DNA from: a virus
Strand: one strand, 5' to 3'
Virus record (IMG/VR): IMGVR_UViG_3300038829_000049
Coordinates: 1 to 46,165 of that record
Length of the DNA: 46,165 bases
This document shows, one piece after another, positions 3,695 through 33,071 of the stretch. Made by a program: the position numbers and the translations under genes. Within the stretch, counting starts at the first letter, position 1, and every line of letters begins with the position of its first letter. The notes beneath the pieces are model-generated. The model was given only the letters and a program-made list of their open reading frames with translations. It did not search any database and was not told where the DNA came from.

Positions 3695-3781
3695 GGTTCG
3701 TCCAGGCTCACAATTCCTCAAAAACTGCAAGCCCTGACCCGCGCTCCGCCGAGATGAAACCACCGATGAGGATGCAACGCA

Positions 3782-5473
3782 ATGGCTGACATCGCCGGCC
3801 AGTACATTGACGAACTGCTCTCGTCAGGGAAGCCGTTCCCTTCGATCGACGAGATCCAAGCAGAGATATCGAGGCGGTCTGGCCCCACGAACAACCGCGA
3901 ACGCCAGTTTGCCGCACGTCGCGCAATGTCGGGCCGTGATCCGTCATTGTCTACAGCAGACCGAGAGGCCGTGGCACGACGTGCGTCCATCAGCGAAGAG
4001 AACAACCAGGCCATCGAGCGTGGGGTCGGAGAGCTTGTGCTGGGTCAGCCGATCCGAGCTGGGCGGGCCATTGGGGAAGCCTATGAAAAGCCCTCGATCG
4101 CAAATCTGACGGCGGCCGGTGCGCATACGGCATTGGCTGCATTCCGGCCAATGACGGCGGGTGCGTTTGCCGTTGGCGGAATGGGCGCGGCGGCAGCGTC
4201 GGACTTGGCTGACGAGTTCGTATCTGATGCCGGTGCCCAACAGCGAAATCAGCCGAATGCACGCGCCAGAGCTGCGAATGCCGAACGCTCGGCAGCGAGA
4301 GAAAAGGTAAACCTTCTCAAAACCGAGAACGCGAAAGCGGCCGATGACGAGCGCCGGCGTATCGATGCGCTTGACCGCAATGAATACGACGCCGCCGTCA
4401 GCCGGGCCGAGGCTGAGAAAAACGCAATCCTCGCCGACAAGCCGAAGCGGTTCGGCGATACGGCAGTCGGTGAAGTCTACAACAAGCTCGGCATGATCGC
4501 GCCGGGTGTCATTGCTGCGGGTATGGGAGGTGTGTCTAGGCTTGGCTCTGCCGCGCTCGGCTACAACGGCAAGATCGCAAACTATGCAGCACCTGCGGCC
4601 GTTGGAGCGGTAACGGGTGGGGTTTCTGCCAGTTGGCCGCTTGGGCACGAATTGCTTTTTGAGCCGGCGGCTAATCCGGAACGGAGGGCCTATGAGGCGT
4701 ATGCGCGCGAACTGCCGCCGACGCACCCGCGGAAACAAGAGTGGACGGATTACGCTCTACGCCAACCCGAAGCGAACCCGGCACGTAATGCAGCGTCGGA
4801 AGAGTTTTATAATCCAACCAAGTTCATGGAGCGAACAGGAGTCGGCGTAGCTGAGGGGGTGCTTGGCGGTCTTGCAGGCTCTGAATTCGTCAACACGTTG
4901 AGGCACCCCATCCGCGCATCTAACTTGTTTGGCGGAGCCAACCGTGGAGCTGGCGGAGGATCTTCTCCTGGCGGTCCGCCGGGAGCTGGCGCAAATAGCG
5001 GGCCAAATTTTCCGCCGCTACCCCAGCAGCCCCCTCAAGGCGGAATAACTCCGCCTTCCGGTCCAATGCCGCCGACGTATCCGCCTTACGATCCGCTATT
5101 GCATGGGCCTGTTGCACGGCAATACCTCGATGATGCGTTGTCGTCAGGAAGAGTGCCAGAAACCGACACGATGGTCAATCAGTTGCAGGGTCAATTTGTT
5201 GGTCGAGGCTGGCCACAAGTTGACCCTGCTAACCTTGCCCATCGTGCTCGCGGAACCGTGGAAGAGTTGATGATGATCGATCAACTTCTTCGCTCCGGCC
5301 AAATGCGCCGGACAGTGACTGGCCAAGAGGTTCGTCAGCCTGTTTTGAACGCATCGACCGGGCGTGATTACACGTTGGCCGTCCCCGCTGCCGCACTTCC
5401 TGCGGCCGGTTACTATGGCATGCCAGAACAGCCACCAAATGCCCTGATGCAACATCGAGCCGACCAGTATTGA
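3782..5473 (+). CDS. Internal virion/ejection protein candidate with a Gly/Pro-rich low-complexity tract
   Basis: 563-aa ORF with hydrophobic G/A segments and a GGANRGAGGGSSPGGPPGAGANSGPNFPPLPQQPPQGG tract. Function is by position only. Confidence 0.6.
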   Translation: MADIAGQYIDELLSSGKPFPSIDEIQAEISRRSGPTNNRERQFAARRAMSGRDPSLSTADREAVARRASISEENNQAIERGVGELVLGQPIRAGRAIGEAYEKPSIANLTAAGAHTALAAFRPMTAGAFAVGGMGAAAASDLADEFVSDAGAQQRNQPNARARAANAERSAAREKVNLLKTENAKAADDERRRIDALDRNEYDAAVSRAEAEKNAILADKPKRFGDTAVGEVYNKLGMIAPGVIAAGMGGVSRLGSAALGYNGKIANYAAPAAVGAVTGGVSASWPLGHELLFEPAANPERRAYEAYARELPPTHPRKQEWTDYALRQPEANPARNAASEEFYNPTKFMERTGVGVAEGVLGGLAGSEFVNTLRHPIRASNLFGGANRGAGGGSSPGGPPGAGANSGPNFPPLPQQPPQGGITPPSGPMPPTYPPYDPLLHGPVARQYLDDALSSGRVPETDTMVNQLQGQFVGRGWPQVDPANLAHRARGTVEELMMIDQLLRSGQMRRTVTGQEVRQPVLNASTGRDYTLAVPAAALPAAGYYGMPEQPPNALMQHRADQY

Positions 5474-5509: not shown

Positions 5510-6667
5510 ATGACCGACCGACCCGCCAGGCAGCCAGAACTGAACCCCTACGAGTTCCCCTGGTATCAGCGGCTCCCGCACGCAGCAACCGACTGGTGGT
5601 ATGGCCCCGACGCGACCGCGCAGAACCATGCGCAGTCGTCCAAGTTGCTGGGCACAGCCAATCCGTTCAACGTGCCGGGCAACGTCTTCGAGGGGACGGA
5701 TCGCATGCGAGATGGGTGGCAGCGCGGTGATTGGGGGGCCGTGGGCGGTGGAGCGCTGCAGGCGGGCGCTTCGATTGCAGGAACAGGTGCTGCCGTTGGA
5801 ACGGTGCAAGGCGCCATGCGCGGCGCGCAGTCGGCCCGCAACGTTCTGCGTGAAAACCGCGCATGGGAGGCGAATACGCCGCGCGGGATGGCGATGGATG
5901 AGCCGCCTTTGATGCCAACGCATGCCGAGAATTTAACAAAGATGCGCGATTACGCGAGGCGGCTTTCCCGCGGGGAAAAACTATCATCGAAGGAACTCGC
6001 CGAGGCAGAACGTCTGAGAGAGAATGCACTAGAAATGGAAGTGAAAGGACATCGAAGAATGTCCAGGGATGATCTCAATGCGGCGCTTGACATGGAGATA
6101 CCTGCCAGAAATAGCAACCCATTTCCGACCAGGGAAGTTGTGTCTGGAGCAGGCGGCGCAGCATTCAGTGACTGGGCATGGAATGGTGGCATCATGCCGT
6201 GGAACTGGAATGCACCCGGCACGCTCCAGAACACCACACGAGATATGTTGACATCAGCCCAGCACCCCGATGCTGAAAATCAGCCGGATGGCTATTACGG
6301 ACATCGGCCCATTCCGCAGCCGATCGGTCCTGCGGCTCAGGTCGGTGCTGCTGTGGGGGCCGGATTTGGCGCGGTAGCGTCACCAGTTGCTACGGCTGTT
6401 TCAAATCGTTTGATGCGCGGGAGTCGTGGAATGATCGGCAGGGGCCTGCCGATTGAATATGGCAGTGGAATGGTGCTTGGCACTGGAATGATGGGTGGCA
6501 TCGGGGCAGGTCTCGGCGCTATGGTTGGGTCTGGGCGCAACATCAGGCGTAGCAACGAAGCAGACGGCGAGATGCTGGCGCGGATGAGCCCGATATCTCA
6601 GATGCCCCTGCAGTACCCACCTGAGAATGAGAATGCGCTTTCTCAATACCGCAACGGTCAATACTGA
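5510..6667 (+). CDS. Virion-associated protein candidate (Gly-rich hydrophobic C-terminal part)
   Basis: 385-aa ORF with GAGGT upstream of the ATG. The C-terminal region is rich in G/A/M (GTGMMGGIGAGLGAMVGSG). Function is unknown. Confidence 0.55.
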   Translation: MTDRPARQPELNPYEFPWYQRLPHAATDWWYGPDATAQNHAQSSKLLGTANPFNVPGNVFEGTDRMRDGWQRGDWGAVGGGALQAGASIAGTGAAVGTVQGAMRGAQSARNVLRENRAWEANTPRGMAMDEPPLMPTHAENLTKMRDYARRLSRGEKLSSKELAEAERLRENALEMEVKGHRRMSRDDLNAALDMEIPARNSNPFPTREVVSGAGGAAFSDWAWNGGIMPWNWNAPGTLQNTTRDMLTSAQHPDAENQPDGYYGHRPIPQPIGPAAQVGAAVGAGFGAVASPVATAVSNRLMRGSRGMIGRGLPIEYGSGMVLGTGMMGGIGAGLGAMVGSGRNIRRSNEADGEMLARMSPISQMPLQYPPENENALSQYRNGQY

Positions 6668-6676
6668 GGACGCCCC

Positions 6677-8449
6677 ATGCCCGATTCTGGTTTCGTCATC
6701 TCGCCCACGGTTCGGGTGATCAATGCTTCGTCAGTGGCGATCGCCGGTGGATCGATCGAGTTCTATGACGCCGGCACATCGACGCCGCGCGCGGTCTATT
6801 CCAACTCTGGGCTGACCGCCTCGCTTGGTTCAACCGTCTATCTCGATGCGGGCGGGCATCCGGTCGCTTCGCTGGGCTCGTCGACCAAGGTCATCGTCTA
6901 CACCAGCGCGTCACTGGTGAAGATGATCGTCAAGGATGATGCCAGCGTTACCGTCGCGACCTATGACAACGTCAAGGTGACGGAGGATACATCGGCGTTC
7001 GGCGCAGGAGGCGGCACTGCCGATGTGGTGGCCGGCGTCGTCTCAAAAACCGCTGACTACACCGTTCTAACCACCGACCAGAACAAGTGGTTCAACTGCG
7101 ATCCGACCGGAGCCGGGTTCACGCTGACGCTTCCTTCGGCGGTCACGGCGACGGACGGCTGGGCCGTCGGCGTTCGCCACGCTGGTGCGGCCTCGATCAC
7201 CAACGCGGTACGCCTCTCGACCGTCGCCGGTCAGACGATCTCGAGCGATGCGGTGGCCGGGGTCACCTCGATCGTCATCACCGGCGGCGGCGAGGCTGTG
7301 TGGATTGTGTCGGACGGCTCGGGCTGGTCGGTGATCTCGCACACGCCGCCGCACATCGTGTCGTCGGGCAAGACGACGCTGACCGTTGCCGATCGCCTTT
7401 CGCTGCCGCCGGCTTCACCTGATATCGGTGCGTTCTACATCGTGGCAGCAGCGCCTGCCGGCGCGTGGGTGTCCTATGCCGAGCACGATATTATTCAGAT
7501 CGTCGGCACATCGACTTATCGTCGCTGGACGCCGCCGACCGATTGCGGGTGGTTGGCCTACATCCAAGCCGAGGACGTCCTGACGCAGTTCCGGGCGTCG
7601 GCCTGGGTCGATCTCACCAATATCACCGCGCCTGAAACGAGCGTTCTCGAAACCGCGCTGTTCCTCGACCAGCGGGCAGATGGCGTCGTTGGCGGTACGG
7701 CGAGCGTTGGCGCCTGGACAACGGCCACGCTGCAGACCACGAAGCTCAACACCATCGAGGGGTGCTCGCTCACGTCAGATGTGATCACCCTTCCGGCCGG
7801 CTCGTATTTTGTCGTCGCGTCGAAAATGATGGGTTCGCCGAATAGCGTCGGCGTACGTCTCATTCTTGGCGGCGGCACGATCTTCGAGGGCATCAACGGC
7901 GGCATCTCAGGCACTGAAGACTCGATCATGAGCGTGCACGCGGCGTTCACGCTGGTCGCCTCGGACACGCTCACGCTGCAGTATTACGCGCAAAGTTCCG
8001 GCACCACGAGCGACCTTGGATCTGTGCTCCTGATCGCCGGCAACCTCGAAACCTATGCCTCTGTCCTGATCCTCGACCTGACTTCGCTACAAGGTCCTGC
8101 CGGCGATCGCGGCGCGCAAGGCTCGATATCGGCAACCCCGTCTGGCGCGCTCACGCTGGCCAACGGTGCCAATGCAGACGTCGTGATCGGCACCAACCAG
8201 AAGCACCGCATCACGGGACCAAGCGGGGCATTCTCGGTCAGTGGGTTTGTCGCTCCGTCCAACGATGGCTACGTGTTGTTCGTATACAATCCGACCGCGC
8301 AGACGATGACGCTGACCAACGACGCAACGTCGACGGCGGCCAATCGAATCCTCACCATGACGGGCTCAGATGTCGCGCTCACCGGCCCGTCGATGGTGAT
8401 GCTAATATACGACACAACGGATGCGCGATGGCTATACCACAATCAGTAG
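6677..8449 (+). CDS. Tail fibre / receptor-binding protein
   Basis: The N-terminus IAGGSIEFYDAGTSTPRAVYSNSGLTASLGSTVYLDAGGHPV matches the common phage fibre/tailspike N-terminal motif (..FY.AGT.TP..VYS...L....NPV.LDA.G). The protein is Ser/Thr/Gly-rich and beta-type, with a short collagen-like GPAGDRGAQG. Confidence 0.65.
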   Translation: MPDSGFVISPTVRVINASSVAIAGGSIEFYDAGTSTPRAVYSNSGLTASLGSTVYLDAGGHPVASLGSSTKVIVYTSASLVKMIVKDDASVTVATYDNVKVTEDTSAFGAGGGTADVVAGVVSKTADYTVLTTDQNKWFNCDPTGAGFTLTLPSAVTATDGWAVGVRHAGAASITNAVRLSTVAGQTISSDAVAGVTSIVITGGGEAVWIVSDGSGWSVISHTPPHIVSSGKTTLTVADRLSLPPASPDIGAFYIVAAAPAGAWVSYAEHDIIQIVGTSTYRRWTPPTDCGWLAYIQAEDVLTQFRASAWVDLTNITAPETSVLETALFLDQRADGVVGGTASVGAWTTATLQTTKLNTIEGCSLTSDVITLPAGSYFVVASKMMGSPNSVGVRLILGGGTIFEGINGGISGTEDSIMSVHAAFTLVASDTLTLQYYAQSSGTTSDLGSVLLIAGNLETYASVLILDLTSLQGPAGDRGAQGSISATPSGALTLANGANADVVIGTNQKHRITGPSGAFSVSGFVAPSNDGYVLFVYNPTAQTMTLTNDATSTAANRILTMTGSDVALTGPSMVMLIYDTTDARWLYHNQ

Positions 8450-25845: not shown

Positions 25846-26165
25846 CCTGTCGTGTCTGCAAGCACTGGAAGGGGGATTCATATTCATGGAATGAAGACGG
25901 GAAGCCTCCGGTAACAGGCCCATGTCGGCGTGATCCTGTCCCGGTCGATGTGGCTTCGACCTACTCATGTTCCAGCTGTGTCGTCGATATAGGTGACGCT
26001 TGGCATTGGCTCTTCAACTACCGCCACGATGCGAAGGAACTGCGGAAAGAAAGGAAACAACACGACGCGACGACGGCGACACTAGAGCGTGTCAGGGCTC
26101 GCGCCCGAAGCCTCAAAGAGCAACTTTCTCGTGCCCGCGTACAAGACGGGACCAAGACAACATGA
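25842..26165 (+). CDS. Cys-rich hypothetical protein
   Basis: 107-aa ORF with CRVC ... C ... CSSC, ATGA-coupled on both sides. Confidence 0.5.
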   Translation: MTCRVCKHWKGDSYSWNEDGKPPVTGPCRRDPVPVDVASTYSCSSCVVDIGDAWHWLFNYRHDAKELRKERKQHDATTATLERVRARARSLKEQLSRARVQDGTKTT

Positions 26166-26620
26166 GCAACCGAGCCCTCGTATACCGCTGCCCTCCCAAC
26201 ACTGAGCACAAGGCCGCCCAGGAGCTTCGTGAGGCCGGCATTCGTGCCTATGTCCCCCGGGATCGCGCATCGAAGCGCAACCCCTTCACCGGCAAACGTC
26301 AGGCGCCGGCACCGGGCTATGTGTTCGCCGATCGAGCTCTAATGGCAGCCTACGCCAAGCATGTCCGGGCGCCGCTCGGCATCGTCAATCGGTCGGAAAT
26401 GGCCCGGCTGTACCTCGGGCGGCAGCGCTCGCCAGCCCCACGGTATGCCCATCAGATCGGCACCCGCGTCACGATCCAGCGGGGTCCCAACGCAGAGTTG
26501 CACGCCATCATCGCCGGCCACCGCGAGCGGTTCTACTACGTCGACGTCGAGTTGTTCGGCAGAACGCATCGCCAGACGGTGCATGAACAGCACATCAAAC
26601 GTTACACTGGGGTTCCATAG
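26162..26620 (+). CDS. NusG/RfaH-like transcription elongation (antitermination) factor candidate
   Basis: The N-terminus is NGN-like (ALVYRCPPNTEHKAAQELREAGIRAYVP). A KOW-like segment (IGTRVTIQRGPNAELHAIIAG) follows. It is the last gene of the early-right operon and is followed by a terminator. Confidence 0.55.
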   Translation: MSNRALVYRCPPNTEHKAAQELREAGIRAYVPRDRASKRNPFTGKRQAPAPGYVFADRALMAAYAKHVRAPLGIVNRSEMARLYLGRQRSPAPRYAHQIGTRVTIQRGPNAELHAIIAGHRERFYYVDVELFGRTHRQTVHEQHIKRYTGVP

Positions 26621-26755: not shown

Positions 26756-26794
26756 GGCTGCCAACTGCGGGGAACCGTTGGCAGCCCGTTTTGC
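26756..26794 (+). terminator. Rho-independent terminator candidate whose U-tract is the transposon target site
   Basis: ggctgccaac (26756-26765) and gttggcagcc (26777-26786) form a 10-bp perfect stem with an 11-nt loop, followed by cgttttgc. Confidence 0.5.
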
Positions 26795-26832
26795 GGGAAC
26801 TATATACTTGACGGAACAGGAATCGGCAAGGT

Positions 26833-27066
26833 ATGGAACCCCCGCGTGACAGGCCGGAAAATGAAAATGGAGACCTGGTAGAGGTAACTCCCGCTATGAT
26901 CGCGGCTGGAGTTGCTGAGCTGAGCGAAAAGATGTTCGGACAGCCAATGGACATTGTTGTCAGGGAAGTTTACTTGGCGATGCGGAGCGCCAACGTCGCA
27001 GCCTATAAGGGCAGCGACAGGCCGGCGAATGGCGCTTCTCCGCAAATGGAGGGGCGTCGTGGATAG
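26833..27066 (+). CDS. Cargo ORF, hypothetical (VTPAMIAAGVAEL motif)
   Basis: 77-aa ORF just inside IRL. The RBS is weak, so the transcript may be leaderless from the TTGACG in the IR. Confidence 0.35.
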   Translation: MEPPRDRPENENGDLVEVTPAMIAAGVAELSEKMFGQPMDIVVREVYLAMRSANVAAYKGSDRPANGASPQMEGRRG

Positions 27067-27226
27067 CAATGAATACAAAATTACGGACGAAATGCTTCAT
27101 GCGGGAAAAGTGGCTCTATACGAGCGGAAGATGCTGTCAACGCCGCCGAAGCCGCACGACGGAATGAAGAAAGGGGCCGCGCCGAAGCGCGACCCCCACT
27201 TTTCTGGGAAGGGCTCAAAGTCCTAG
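27059..27226 (+). CDS. Cargo ORF, hypothetical (ITDEMLHAGKVAL motif, paralogous to the upstream ORF motif)
   Basis: GTG 27059 overlaps the upstream stop. It is the C-terminal part of ORF 26954..27226. Confidence 0.3.
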   Translation: MDSNEYKITDEMLHAGKVALYERKMLSTPPKPHDGMKKGAAPKRDPHFSGKGSKS

Positions 27227-27256
27227 GTTGGCACTGCGGGCTTTGAGTTCCTTCTG

Positions 27257-27424
27257 TTACTTTTTGACGGGTGCGTTCCATGCGGACTTGACGAGGGCGA
27301 TGCCGTGATCGCAGTCCGCCTCCTTCAAGTACCCTTCTCCGGAGTCGGCGACCTTCTTGCCGTTCGACGCCATCAAAAACCAACGCCACTGATTGGCGTT
27401 GTCGATGTATTTCCAGAACACCAT
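27257..27424 (-). CDS. YegP/DUF1508-like small protein
   Basis: MVFWKYIDNANQWRWFLMASNGKKVADSGEGYLKEADCDHGIALVK matches the DUF1508 repeat (F..Y.D..G.WRW.L.A.NG..IA.S.EGY.....C...I). Confidence 0.65.
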   Translation of the reverse strand: MVFWKYIDNANQWRWFLMASNGKKVADSGEGYLKEADCDHGIALVKSAWNAPVKK

Positions 27425-27453
27425 CTGTGATGGTCCTTCTGTTTGGAGCTGCA

Positions 27454-27696
27454 ATGAACGCGGACTATCGAACGCACTTGTTCACCTACCGCCACGACGG
27501 GGCGGAATGGGTACTCGCAATCGAAGCCACTGATGCTGATGACGCGCGGGCTCGTATCGGGAAGCTGGCATATGCGACATACAACGGTGTCGCCATCTCA
27601 CGCACGCCAGCAGCACTTGCCCCAGTCGGAATTGCGTCCGTCTGGTTCAGGAACCTCGCAAGAGCGATCTTGCCGCGATTCTTCGTTGCTCGCTAG
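27454..27696 (+). CDS. Cargo ORF, hypothetical
   Basis: A GGAG RBS lies 5 nt upstream of the ATG. It is divergent from the YegP-like gene. Confidence 0.45.
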   Translation: MNADYRTHLFTYRHDGAEWVLAIEATDADDARARIGKLAYATYNGVAISRTPAALAPVGIASVWFRNLARAILPRFFVAR

Positions 27697-27865
27697 CGGG
27701 CAGATCGTCGACGCCAGATCACGAAGTGTTTCGCTTTCTGACTCGCGGTCTTACGCCGGGTCAACTGGCCTGTAGCTTATCGAAGTACGAAAGCCCTAAC
27801 ATTCCAACTGCTAATTGTAGGCGGACCTGAGCCTTGTCTATGGCGATCTGTTTCATGGAGATGGT

Positions 27866-28012
27866 GTGCCTAAAGAGACAAAGAAGGACGAGATCAAGGA
27901 CGAGCCAGGCGCGGAAGACCGCTTCCTGCGCGGCATCCGCAAGGCCGTGAACACTCCGCCCAAGCCCTTCACCAAGAAGGCGAAGGGCAAGAAACAAGGA
28001 TCTGCGAAGTGA
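27866..28012 (+). CDS. Lys-rich 48-aa peptide candidate (..AEDRFLRGIRKAVNTPPKPFTKKAKGKK..)
   Basis: GGAG lies 5 nt upstream of the GTG. Third-position GC is about 79 percent by hand count. Below the ORF-track cutoff. Confidence 0.35.
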   Translation: MPKETKKDEIKDEPGAEDRFLRGIRKAVNTPPKPFTKKAKGKKQGSAK

Positions 28013-28164
28013 CACTTGATGCGCTGTTGTCACTGATCGAGAACGAATTTTATGGTCTGTCGATCAGCGAGACAGACGACTTAGAGCGGCGGCTAGTTGC
28101 CCAACTTGCTGAGACACGTGGGCGACGTTTGAGTTCGTCGACTCCACTTCTTTCGCAAGCTCAA

Positions 28165-28614
28165 TCAGCGCCGTGCATATGCCGAACAGAGCTGGGTCTG
28201 TCTTGCGATCAATCTTCTTGATCGTCTGGGGCCAGCTTCCTTGGGCATGCCCATGGCCTCGCGGACACGATGGCAAAGGAACCACGCGCTCTTGTAGGTG
28301 ATGCCGAGCATGCGGTGGACCTGATGAGCGGAGACGCCCTTCTTGCTGGACGCCATGAGGCGGAAGGTCATCAGCCACTTCGTCAGCGGGATGTGCGAGC
28401 GCTCCATGACGGAGCCGACTGTGACGGAGAACTTCTTGCGGCACTCGCTGCAAAGGACGAGGCCGCGCTCAGCCGCCGCGCCACCGAGACGCTTGCAATG
28501 CTTGCCGCTGTCACAGAACGGGCAAACCGGACCATCGGGCCAACGCTGGGCTTCAAGAAGCTCGCGGGCCTTGGTCTCGTCGTGAAATACGGGGTCGGTG
28601 ATGTTGAAGGACAT
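28165..28614 (-). CDS. IS1595/ISXO2-type transposase, N-terminal zinc-ribbon plus HTH part only (no DDE domain)
   Basis: FHDETKARELLEAQRWPDGPVCPFCDSG...LCSECRKKFSVTVGSVMERSHIPLTKWLMTFRLMASSKKGVSAHQVHRMLGITYKSAWFLCHRVREAM follows the family pattern closely. It stops about 25 aa later. I found no VE.DETY / HTNTIEGFW-type motifs in any frame downstream. Confidence 0.75.
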   Translation of the reverse strand: MSFNITDPVFHDETKARELLEAQRWPDGPVCPFCDSGKHCKRLGGAAAERGLVLCSECRKKFSVTVGSVMERSHIPLTKWLMTFRLMASSKKGVSAHQVHRMLGITYKSAWFLCHRVREAMGMPKEAGPRRSRRLIARQTQLCSAYARR

Positions 28615-28831
28615 CGGGGCAATCCTTGCTGGATGCCCCTTTCTACGCTATCGAACCTGTTCCGTCAAGTATATAGTTCCCCGTTTTGCATACGCCACTC
28701 ACCCACGCAACGCTTACCCATTCCCCGTGTCGAGCTTCATCCAGCACCCGGACGCACGCACCGGGCACGCATCTCCACAGCCGACACGGGGAACCCTACC
28801 CCATCCATCCTGAACACCTCATGAAAGGCTG

Positions 28832-31086: not shown

Positions 31087-31545
31087 ATGCCCCGTATAGC
31101 CTACTCCATCGATCTCGCCTCCCGCGTATGCGCGCTCATGCTGACCCGCAAGGAGGACGGCAATGTCATGAGCCTGCGGGACATCTGCAGCATCGATGAC
31201 ATGCCGGCAGAGGGGACGCTCTACAGATGGCTCAGTGAGAACCCGGAATTCGGCGAGATGTACGCGCGTGCGCGTGAAGAGCGGGCGCATCTGGCGGCTG
31301 AGGACATCATCCACATCGCCGACACCGAGCAAGACCCCAACAAGGCCCGCGTTCGGATCGATGCCCGCAAATGGTATGCATCCAAGCTCAATCGCAAGGA
31401 CTACGGGGACAGCCTGGATCTCGGCGGCGGCCTGCATGTGAAGTTGACTGATGACCAGCTTGAATCTCGCCTTGCTCACATCCTCGGAAAAGCGGGAGTT
31501 GCTCTCGCTCTTGGACGAGAAGGAGCGTCGGAAGAAACGCCGTAA
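31087..31545 (+). CDS. terS: Terminase small subunit
   Basis: SLRDICSIDDMPAEGTLYRWLSENPEFGEMYARAREERAHLAAEDIIHIAD...RIDARKWYASKLNRKDYGD matches the common TerS pattern (..W......F...Y..AR......E...IAD......R...D.RKW..SKL.P..YGD). Confidence 0.6.
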   Translation: MPRIAYSIDLASRVCALMLTRKEDGNVMSLRDICSIDDMPAEGTLYRWLSENPEFGEMYARAREERAHLAAEDIIHIADTEQDPNKARVRIDARKWYASKLNRKDYGDSLDLGGGLHVKLTDDQLESRLAHILGKAGVALALGREGASEETP

Positions 31546-32200
31546 GCTGTTCGACCTCTACCCCAGCGAAGGGCCGTTGCGGCGGGAGTTATACGCCAAA
31601 CACCTGCAGTTCTTCGCTGGCGGTTCCGAGCACATGGAACGCTGCATGATGGCAGCGAACCGCGTGGGAAAAACCTGGGGTGTCGGCGGCTACGAGACGG
31701 CGCTGCATCTGACCGGACGCTATCCAGATTGGTGGCCAGGCCGGCGGTTCACGGACCCGGTTGGCGCATGGGTGGCTGGCGACACGCGGACGACGACGCG
31801 AGATATCATCCAGGTGGCGTTGCTAGGTGTCGGCGGTGATGCGGGCTCTGGTGAAATGGGAACGGGGCTGATCCCCGGCGATGACATCGCAGGCAAGCCC
31901 ACACCGATGCAGGGCGTGCCGGGCGGTATCGATACGGTCGCGGTTAAGCATCGATCGGGCGGGCTCTCGATCCTCGGGTTTAAGTCCTACGATCAGGGCC
32001 GGCGAACGTTTCAGGGCACGCAAAAGCAGGTTGTCTGGCTCGATGAGGAGCCGCCCATGGACGTATACGAGGAGGCGATGCTGCGGTTGACGGCGACGGT
32101 GCCGGGTGAGGTCAACGGGTTGATGCTCTGCACGTTCACGCCGCTGCTTGGATTGAGTAAGGTGGCGCTTAAATTCCTGCCGGAGATGGCGCCGCATTAG
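31451..32200 (+). CDS. terL: Terminase large subunit, N-terminal ATPase part (ends at an in-frame TAG)
   Basis: Walker A is AANRVGKT and Walker B is VVWLDEEP. It ends with TFTPLLGLSKVALKFLPEMAPH then TAG. It overlaps terS by 95 nt. Confidence 0.8.
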   Translation: MTSLNLALLTSSEKRELLSLLDEKERRKKRRKLFDLYPSEGPLRRELYAKHLQFFAGGSEHMERCMMAANRVGKTWGVGGYETALHLTGRYPDWWPGRRFTDPVGAWVAGDTRTTTRDIIQVALLGVGGDAGSGEMGTGLIPGDDIAGKPTPMQGVPGGIDTVAVKHRSGGLSILGFKSYDQGRRTFQGTQKQVVWLDEEPPMDVYEEAMLRLTATVPGEVNGLMLCTFTPLLGLSKVALKFLPEMAPH

Positions 32201-32339: not shown

Positions 32340-33071
32340 GTGAGCCGTCTCTGCGTCCAGGCCACGTGGAATGACGTGCCCCATCTGTCAGAGAAAACGA
32401 AGGCGGAGTTACTCGACGCGATGGAGCCGCATATGCGGGATGCCCGAACCAAGGGCATTCCCATGCTCGGCGCCGGTGCGATCTACCCGGTGCCGGAGTC
32501 CTCGTTTCTGTGTGACCCATTCGAGATGCCGGAGTTCTGGCCGCGCGCCTATGGCCTCGATGTCGGTTGGAACAAGACAGCAGCCATCTGGGGTGCGTGG
32601 GATCGAGAGGGCGACACGGTCTATCTCTATTCCGAGCACTACATGGGGCAAGCGGCTCCATCGGTGCACGCTGATGCGATCAGGGCCCGCGGCGATTGGA
32701 TGTGGGGCGCGATTGATCCGGCATCGGCCGGCTCGGGACAGATCGACGGCAAGAAGTTGCGTGAGGTCTACACCGGCATCGGTCTCAATCTCGTCGATGC
32801 CGACAACGCGGTCGAGGCCGGCATTCACGCTGTGTATCAGCGCCTCGTATCGGGTCGCCTCAAGGTGTTTCGCACGCTGCGCAACTGGACGGCCGAGGTC
32901 CGCATCTATCGGCGTGACGAGAACGGCAAAGTCGTGAAGGAGAATGACCACCTGATGGACGCTATGCGCTACCTGATCATGACAGGGATGAAGCTCGCAC
33001 GGATCGCGCCTGATTTCGATGATGACGATGTGCGCGAGCGTCGCCGCGCCAACAACAGCACCGGATATTGA
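32340..33071 (+). CDS. terL: Terminase large subunit, C-terminal nuclease part (start undefined)
   Basis: VQATWNDVPHLSE...ARTKGIPMLGAGAIYP...GLDVGWN...DHLMDAMRYL are typical TerL C-terminal motifs. This frame is open only from 32301. The GTG at 32340 has no RBS. It is in a different phase from the N-terminal part. Confidence 0.8.
   Translation: MSRLCVQATWNDVPHLSEKTKAELLDAMEPHMRDARTKGIPMLGAGAIYPVPESSFLCDPFEMPEFWPRAYGLDVGWNKTAAIWGAWDREGDTVYLYSEHYMGQAAPSVHADAIRARGDWMWGAIDPASAGSGQIDGKKLREVYTGIGLNLVDADNAVEAGIHAVYQRLVSGRLKVFRTLRNWTAEVRIYRRDENGKVVKENDHLMDAMRYLIMTGMKLARIAPDFDDDDVRERRRANNSTGY

Follow-up and report, generated by a model that had tools for sequence, protein, structure and literature searches.

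A defective, apparently non-autonomous IS1595-family element with passenger genes behind the antiterminator gene of a groundwater phage

Morons are small self-contained cassettes inserted between phage genes. Insertion sequences (ISs) can likewise carry extra genes between their ends, and such transporter ISs were defined on the IS1595 family (PMC3129680, citing Siguier, Gagnevin & Chandler 2009). Mobile insertion cassettes are bracketed by inverted repeats, flanked by a duplication, devoid of a transposase and mobilized in trans (PMC3913671). In IS1, the zinc finger and helix-turn-helix protein InsA represses the IS promoter and competes with the transposase at both terminal repeats (PMC12428005). 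Here we describe a 1,887-bp element at positions 26795-28681 of IMG/VR virus record IMGVR_UViG_3300038829_000049, a phage sequence from groundwater metagenomes that we analyzed over its full 46,165 nucleotides (the window). We consider it highly likely that this element is a defective, non-autonomous copy of a gene-carrying IS1595-family IS, similar to a mobile insertion cassette, with intact ends and a transposase gene that has lost its catalytic DDE domain.

The boundaries of the element are the following.

26787..26794, no strand: left target-site duplication, CGTTTTGC (sequence, octamer count)
26795..26820, + strand: transposase-distal inverted repeat (IRR); family core at 26795-26817, the same 23-nt core as in loci L001-L023
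28656..28681, - strand: transposase-proximal inverted repeat (IRL) (repeat search, shuffles)
28682..28689, no strand: right target-site duplication, CGTTTTGC (sequence, octamer count)

The two inverted repeats are complementary at 26 of 26 positions. Their 23-nt core occurs at exactly two sites in the window, even with three mismatches permitted, and shuffled controls (n = 100) gave no match. Both repeats are adjoined by CGTTTTGC in direct orientation. This octamer is not rare in itself (four copies in the window versus 1.9 expected); the improbable part is its position beside both repeats, as the chance of an identical octamer abutting on the right, given the left copy, is about 4^-8. A preliminary description of this DNA, made from the letters alone, had proposed a 26-bp perfect inverted repeat with an 8-bp direct repeat of the IS1595 type, and both are upheld, the latter also by clean 8-bp duplications in most of the relatives described below. 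That the element is a true product of IS1595-family transposition is borne out as well, its repeat core being common to many elements with 8-bp duplications. The inward-facing TTGACG hexamer reported for both repeats is present at positions 14-19 of each and belongs to the invariant core. In most transposase-proximal ends of relatives a TAG or TAA stands about 15 nt further inward, and a sigma-70 scan found no matching -10 hexamer of the E. coli type after TTGACG at either end of the element. TTGACGG presumably fits the Caulobacter -35 consensus.

Were the repeats coincidental, the whole segment would be native phage DNA. One related phage, L044, does have two of the element's genes (the lysine-rich and IRR-proximal genes) at this locus without recognizable repeats; even there, however, an apparent decayed repeat was seen by eye, with CTTGACG 25 nt before the start of the open reading frame (ORF). 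The absence of matches in the shuffled sequences refutes this explanation, as does the presence of the 23-nt core at the borders of more than ten elements that lie in unrelated genomic surroundings, each with an 8-bp duplication of its own, and we regard it as vanishingly improbable.

The sole transposase-like ORF of the element (28165-28614, minus strand) encodes 149 amino acids (aa) and consists of two parts, preceded by a leader.

28228..28614, - strand: transposase remnant, codons 1-130, zinc ribbon plus helix-turn-helix, without DDE (profile, tblastn, alignments; G+C fraction at third codon positions [GC3] 0.82)
28165..28227, - strand: foreign tail, transposase codons 131-149 (alignments, end of DNA similarity at 28227/28228, GC3 0.43)
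28616..28639, - strand: leader hairpin (GGGGCA...TGCCCC) over the AAGGA ribosome-binding site of the remnant (sequence; weak covariation, seven relatives)

The Pfam family Zn_ribbon_IS1595 (PF12760) matches residues 12-60 of this ORF at 41.2 bits, against a cutoff of 25.4. Compared with the closest database proteins, similarity to IS1595 transposases is confined to codons 1-130 and ends at '...EAGP|RRSRRL': the window protein continues with RRSRRL..., whereas its relatives continue with IGGEGKT.... DNA similarity to relatives stops at 28227/28228, which leaves 387 bp of homologous transposase coding DNA, and the 19-codon tail, with its low GC3, results from translation running on into foreign DNA. 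At its other end, the remnant has an intact start codon, ribosome-binding site and leader. ISs commonly use a leader hairpin over the ribosome-binding site to guard against read-through expression.

All searches for the catalytic domain were negative. The NCBIfam model transpos_IS1595 (NF033547) matched the window ORF at 60.3 bits, below its cutoff of 75 and over model positions 1-56 of 215, whereas a full-length relative from locus L021 scored 191 bits over positions 1-215. When the 310-aa protein of that relative was compared with the whole window by tblastn, only aa 1-130 aligned, and an unfiltered profile built from nine full-length relatives matched the six-frame fragments of the window at positions 1-124 of 312 only (E 7e-71), with a second-best match at E 2.4. 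Thus, a zinc ribbon, shared terminal repeats and an 8-bp duplication place the element in the IS1595 family, while the DDE domain (PF12762 / NF033547) is absent; it therefore fails as an autonomous IS1595 IS and is non-autonomous. This agrees with the preliminary description, which had recognized only the N-terminal half of an IS1595-type transposase, had seen no DDE motifs in any frame of the remaining 460 bp and had offered a non-autonomous element as one reading; a six-frame hidden Markov model check for a complete DDE domain found none. It had also placed the end of the ORF after an HRVREAM motif, correctly, although the distance is 28 aa and not about 25.

Some database relatives of 136-169 aa are frameshifted full-length genes, which could suggest that this element, too, is an ordinary autonomous IS whose catalytic domain lies in a different frame or is reached through a programmed frameshift. 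The six-frame profile, which stops at position 124, the concordant tblastn result and the short stretch of homologous coding DNA refute this, and we consider it extremely improbable.

The insertion lies between regulatory and late genes of the phage. A gene at 26162-26620, ending 170 bp upstream of the element, matches the antiterminator family phrog_6386 (E 4.6e-12) and is NusG-like; it is followed by a hairpin.

26756..26786, + strand: hairpin (GGCTGCCAAC / GTTGGCAGCC) in phage DNA upstream of the insertion (-25.8 kcal/mol, z -2.1)

A strict terminator scan did not pick up this hairpin, which, taken with the CGTTTTGC that follows, resembles a weak terminator for the antiterminator gene. The element is inserted in the T-stretch behind it, with terminase and capsid genes further downstream. 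In a distant phage (L029), the antiterminator gene is followed by a 180-aa downstream gene, with no element genes between them. Identical copies of the window element occur at the same site in several assemblies of two runs, and this is the only insertion site found for it.

To define the family, we searched genomes for the initial 20 nt of the repeat and obtained 17 loci, mostly from metagenome-assembled genomes of Caulobacterales and Hyphomicrobiaceae. Nearly all have an identical 23-nt core, GGGAACTATATACTTGACGGAAC, which is also present in metagenomic and viral loci; more than 20 elements from Caulobacterales and Hyphomicrobiaceae genomes have it unchanged. Eight relatives are complete, with an intact transposase and passengers within one repeat pair, which the window element does not have; their duplications are given in IRR-to-IRL orientation.

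L018: complete element of 2,151 bp, duplication GAACCCTG
L020: complete element of 2,204 bp, duplication TACGTCAA
L022: complete element of 2,233 bp, duplication GATTTTTT
L047: complete element of 2,306 bp, duplication AAAACAGC
L021: complete element of 2,339 bp, duplication GATCACGT
L035: complete element of 2,549 bp, duplication GGGCGTTT
L011: complete element of 2,904 bp, duplication TCCGAGTC
L039: complete element of 3,429 bp, flanking repeat of 8 or 9 bp (ambiguous where it meets the inverted repeat)

Seven of the eight thus have a clean 8-bp duplication, and their transposases measure 309-320 aa. The intact order runs from IRL through the transposase gene, a variable segment, a convergent lysine-rich gene, a divergent ORF and a small inward ORF to IRR. 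The divergent ORF (ORF-X, 160-220 aa) lies beside the lysine-rich gene in most elements (L011, L018, L020, L021, L022, L038 and L039), is absent from the window element, and matches no Pfam family and nothing in PADLOC. ORF-X and the lysine-rich gene stand back-to-back with start codons overlapping on opposite strands, as at element coordinates 1476-2147 of L022. The segment between the transposase and lysine-rich genes varies from element to element. In L039 it holds a Fic-domain gene (3706-4968), and L011 has a HicB-like passenger ORF, recognized by eye only, at element coordinates 1075-1461; the group therefore moves genes of the toxin/antitoxin type. The chromosomal insertion sites of the relatives share no common target sequence. 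Insertions abutting a hairpin and T-run were seen in the window, L035, L045 and L022.

Chromosomal transposase genes in L024, L025 and L026-L028 are split by frameshifts after about residue 125-225, depending on the copy. We considered and rejected a widespread N-terminal-only protein, as the short homologues P0010, P0035 and P0070 are frameshifted full-length genes; P0035 is identical in seven contigs from different samples. A plasmid search gave DNA matches of about 70% identity to the N-terminal transposase part only (protein identity at most 51%, annotated 'IS1595 family transposase'), and a DNA search of cultured phages with the whole element gave no match. The element and its relatives define a coherent, apparently unnamed IS1595 subgroup of Caulobacterales and Hyphomicrobiaceae, marked by a 23-nt end that does not vary and by three accessory genes that are conserved but unnamed in every library searched.

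Related phages carry DDE-less copies of their own. In a 40-kb phage contig (L040), the orthologous position is occupied by an element of 1,386 bp with its own duplication, GTTCCGAC; similarity to the window flanks extends for 15 nt at one end of it and for about 40 nt at the other. The cuts in the window (26787-26794 / 28682-28689) and in L040 (4647-4654 / 6041-6048) are 1 nt apart, and the two perfect duplications differ, which suggests that insertion has a very sharply defined hot spot here or that the two copies of the duplication changed in parallel. In L045 (the same as L034), an element of 1,108 bp lies about 55 nt from this position and lacks a duplication, and L003 and L043 hold truncated copies at other places. 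In L044 (IMGVR_UViG_3300033119_000262), whose terminase is 75-88% identical to that of the window in protein and 77-79% in DNA, only the IRR-proximal ('VTPEMICAG') and lysine-rich genes are left (3800-4138), behind the antiterminator gene, so that this locus resembles the fossil of another such element.

The transposase genes of six DDE-less copies end at six different deletion points, at about codons 123, 130, 140, 165, 177 and 194, and decay is therefore frequent and private to each copy. A breakpoint shared by the window and L040 was rejected on alignment, in which L040 runs 10 codons further and joins its native 3' end out of frame. Between L040 and L045, the end modules are 97% identical, the inner segments unrelated and the flanks 67-82% identical. 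As the end modules are more alike than the flanks, the phage backbones must be older than the elements, which evolve by module swapping, as described for IS231/MIC231.

In the history that we favor, which is the simplest, a full-length gene-carrying IS from the host would have inserted behind the antiterminator hairpin, duplicating CGTTTTGC, and a single internal deletion, starting at codon 131 of the transposase gene and reaching the variable segment, would have removed the whole catalytic domain. We lean towards a deletion that followed the insertion, within the phage, because the private end-points favor decay in place over the spread of one DDE-less form. The remaining element is unable to cut or join DNA. 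Because both of its ends match the family core at 23 of 23 positions, a full-length relative in the host could probably still move it, with the DUF1508 gene (below) as passenger. By analogy with InsA of IS1, the surviving 130-residue DNA-binding fragment may bind the repeats, including the TTGACG box before its own gene; bound there, it would act as a repressor of that gene and as a competitor of the cognate transposase.

Alternatively, the element may already have been DDE-less on arrival, as a true mobile insertion cassette moved in trans by a host transposase. The perfect match of both ends to the family core and the perfect duplication would fit such an arrival, and so would L040 and L045, whose DDE-less elements, about 55 nt apart and with ends more alike than flanks, point to entry or movement after the phages diverged. 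On the other hand, each of the six DDE-less copies has a deletion end-point of its own, the window junction was found nowhere else and at a single site, and independent full-length insertions followed by quick decay account for the same data. We treat arrival in DDE-less form as possible, though rather unlikely.

Insertion of a full-length IS followed by decay in place also has several observations to contend with. The order of deletion and insertion is unreadable from one copy. The L040 element, at the same site with a different duplication, is awkward for a single old insertion and for random independent insertions alike. Neither tblastn nor the six-frame profile found a full-length transposase partner in the window. 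Exact searches of public collections for the 26-nt repeat in viral contigs, the empty site, the breakpoint junction and the conserved right-flank motif were all empty; as neither an empty site nor a second copy of the exact element was found, a recent insertion or mobilization in trans is hypothetical. Finally, in every phage-borne copy with a transposase remnant the DDE part is absent and the N-terminal ORF is open, with ratios of nonsynonymous to synonymous substitution (dN/dS) of 0.06-0.26, which fit selection as well as decay.

These open N-terminal ORFs raise another explanation, in which the remnant is useful to the phage and the zinc ribbon/helix-turn-helix fragment, perhaps with the lysine-rich protein, would regulate the phage or keep host ISs from transposing into its replicating DNA. 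The preliminary description had offered another role for the remnant as its second reading, and the persistence of this part wherever a phage-borne copy has a transposase remnant is suggestive. Consistent with a useful remnant, the copies in the window, L040, L045, L003 and L043 all combine a missing DDE part with an open N-terminal ORF and private end-points, whereas chromosomal copies are full length; L001 has the same pattern, but on a 2.2-kb contig of unknown origin. The dN/dS between L040 and L045 is about 0.12 (about three nonsynonymous and seven synonymous changes), L044 retains the lysine-rich and IRR-proximal genes without repeats or transposase, and InsA provides a precedent (PMC12428005). 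However, the phage-borne sample is small and some of its copies were retrieved with the N-terminal protein as query, and purifying selection on the N-terminal part may predate the truncations and date from the full-length stage. Moreover, L044 and L050 lack the fragment altogether, and the tail of the window ORF comes from foreign DNA and is non-coding in composition. On balance, a useful remnant seems improbable to us. We would give the same low standing to a broader version, in which an alphaproteobacterial phage lineage keeps IS1595-derived modules between its antiterminator and late genes, modules that have lost the catalytic domain time and again but still have the lysine-rich protein and an InsA-like fragment. 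This fragment would bind related ISs of the host at their ends and might so protect replicating phage DNA, or it might regulate the locus, and the site would be a sharply preferred target, in view of the two insertions 1 nt apart with different duplications.

Besides the transposase remnant, the element has the following contents.

26833..27066, + strand: small ORF beside IRR, 77 aa, 'RDRP...EVTPAMIAAGV' (homologous ORFs in relatives; GC3 only 0.60)
27029..27226, + strand: second small ORF, 65 aa, 'KITDEMLHAGKVAL' (GC3 0.70; element-specific)
27172..27197, - strand: GC-rich hairpin with T-run, terminator-like, about 60 nt beyond the end of the DUF1508 gene (terminator scan)
27257..27454, - strand: DUF1508 (YegP-like) gene, cargo, likely start 27424 (55 aa) (Pfam PF07411, E 3.1e-11; PHROG matches)
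27427..27775, + strand: two overlapping candidate ORFs, 89 aa (27427-27696) and 80 aa (27533-27775) (GC3 0.62 for both)
27866..28012, + strand: gene for a lysine-rich 48-aa protein (KDEPGAEDRFLRGIRKAVNTPPKPF...), convergent with the transposase gene (GC3 0.78)
28009..28221, + strand: 70-aa ORF overlapping the stop of the lysine-rich gene, in unique DNA between the breakpoint and that gene (GC3 0.46)

The lysine-rich gene is present in every relative examined, at 44-66 aa and always convergent with the transposase gene. Over 18 distinct sequences, its entropy by codon position is 0.62/0.46/1.24 bits; as variation concentrates at the third codon positions of its strand, it is a real coding gene. 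Its relatives in databases number at least 447, none of them named, and three of three further gene contexts that we sampled place it beside an IS1595 transposase gene or remnant. ORFs homologous to the 77-aa ORF lie just inside IRR in six relatives, among them L011, L014, L022, L035 and L039, and the pattern 'RDRP...EVTPxMIxAG' recurs in the small ORF inside the far repeat of six elements. A stretch of this ORF, CGTGACAGGCCGG (window 26841-26853), lies 45-60 nt inside the far repeat and is also found in L011, L018, L020, L023, L034 and L040. It encodes 'RDRP' and is nearly invariant in DNA, third codon positions included, and it may also be a binding site. Because both recur across relatives, the lysine-rich gene and the IRR-proximal ORF are conserved family genes and not cargo.

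Element-specific cargo is limited to the DUF1508 gene and a few small ORFs of doubtful status. The DUF1508 gene also has an NCBIfam HVO_2922 match below cutoff, scattered phage homologues and a GC3 of 0.74-0.80, and with its own terminator-like hairpin it looks like a self-contained cassette; this strong hairpin sits within the 65-aa ORF of the opposite strand. The 65-aa ORF is a diverged tandem relative of the 77-aa ORF, and no homologue of it was found in other loci. A search for phage homologues of the 89-aa and 80-aa candidates found none, and the 89-aa candidate has a weak PHROG match only (E 0.002); whether either is coding is uncertain. The 70-aa ORF, for which no homologues were found among relatives, is probably not coding. 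Thus, the YegP/DUF1508-like gene, the two motif-sharing ORFs and the lysine-rich ORF of the preliminary description are all present, but its 1.3 kb of cargo holds for the DUF1508 gene and not for the lysine-rich gene or the IRR-proximal ORF. Window DNA common to relatives amounts to three modules, 28227-28681, 27880-27991 and 26795-26822 (extending to 26860), and there are two private segments, one of about 235 bp that follows the breakpoint and one of about 1 kb with the 65-aa ORF, the DUF1508 gene and the doubtful 80- and 89-aa ORFs.

PADLOC gave no match for any ORF of the element, and a defense function of the cargo was rejected on that ground. Searches for Rfam families and tRNAs found none, and no solved structures were found for the transposase fragment or the lysine-rich family. 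Elsewhere in the window, the large terminase gene is split into parts at 31451-32200 (Terminase_6N) and 32340-33071 (Terminase_6C), 139 nt apart, and no Rfam family matches. The L044 terminase is likewise split (6060-6809 / 7148-7798), with a longer spacer that is not conserved.

A decayed insertion sequence is in itself routine, although here it recurs at or near the same spot in several related phages. Once in a phage genome, elements of this family erode quickly and module by module, and phages might thus carry IS ends and passenger genes from host to host. That the DDE part is lost repeatedly while the DNA-binding part is kept raises the question of whether IS1595 N-terminal fragments can serve as InsA-like inhibitors.

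Compared with transporter ISs, the window element has the same N-terminal zinc ribbon (PF12760), terminal repeats, 8-bp duplication and extra genes between its ends, but it lacks the DDE domain and falls below the NCBIfam transposase cutoff. Within the family we take it to belong, probably, to the ISNwi1/ISNwi1+ subgroup of ISfinder: its repeat start, GGGAACTAT, is presumably close to the ISNwi1 subgroup consensus, and its size falls within the 1.75-4.75 kb that we assume for ISNwi1+.

With mobile insertion cassettes such as MIC231 of Bacillus cereus (PMC3913671, PMC3281130), the element shares IS-family repeats, a duplication, the lack of a working transposase and the presence of unrelated genes, as well as a modular build in which conserved end modules enclose unrelated inner segments. 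These cassettes have no transposase gene by definition, whereas the window element keeps an open 130-codon DNA-binding fragment. Mobilization in trans has been shown for MIC231, whereas the window element is known from sequence, in a phage genome.

Like InsA, the window fragment has a zinc-binding motif together with a helix-turn-helix and no DDE domain; NCBIfam lists a zinc domain shared by IS1 and IS1595 and gives the fragment a weak IS1 match. By the same analogy, the repeat that it would bind overlaps the promoter-like TTGACG before its gene, and we found in the literature no binding or repression data for any IS1595-family protein. InsA, however, is the programmed product of an intact IS unless the ribosome frameshifts, whereas the window fragment comes from a deletion. 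Finally, the insertion resembles phage morons in being intergenic between regulatory and late genes, in the terminator-like hairpin that the DUF1508 gene has for itself and in the varying content of the locus among related phages, and differs from them in its bounds, as morons are not enclosed by IS repeats and duplications.

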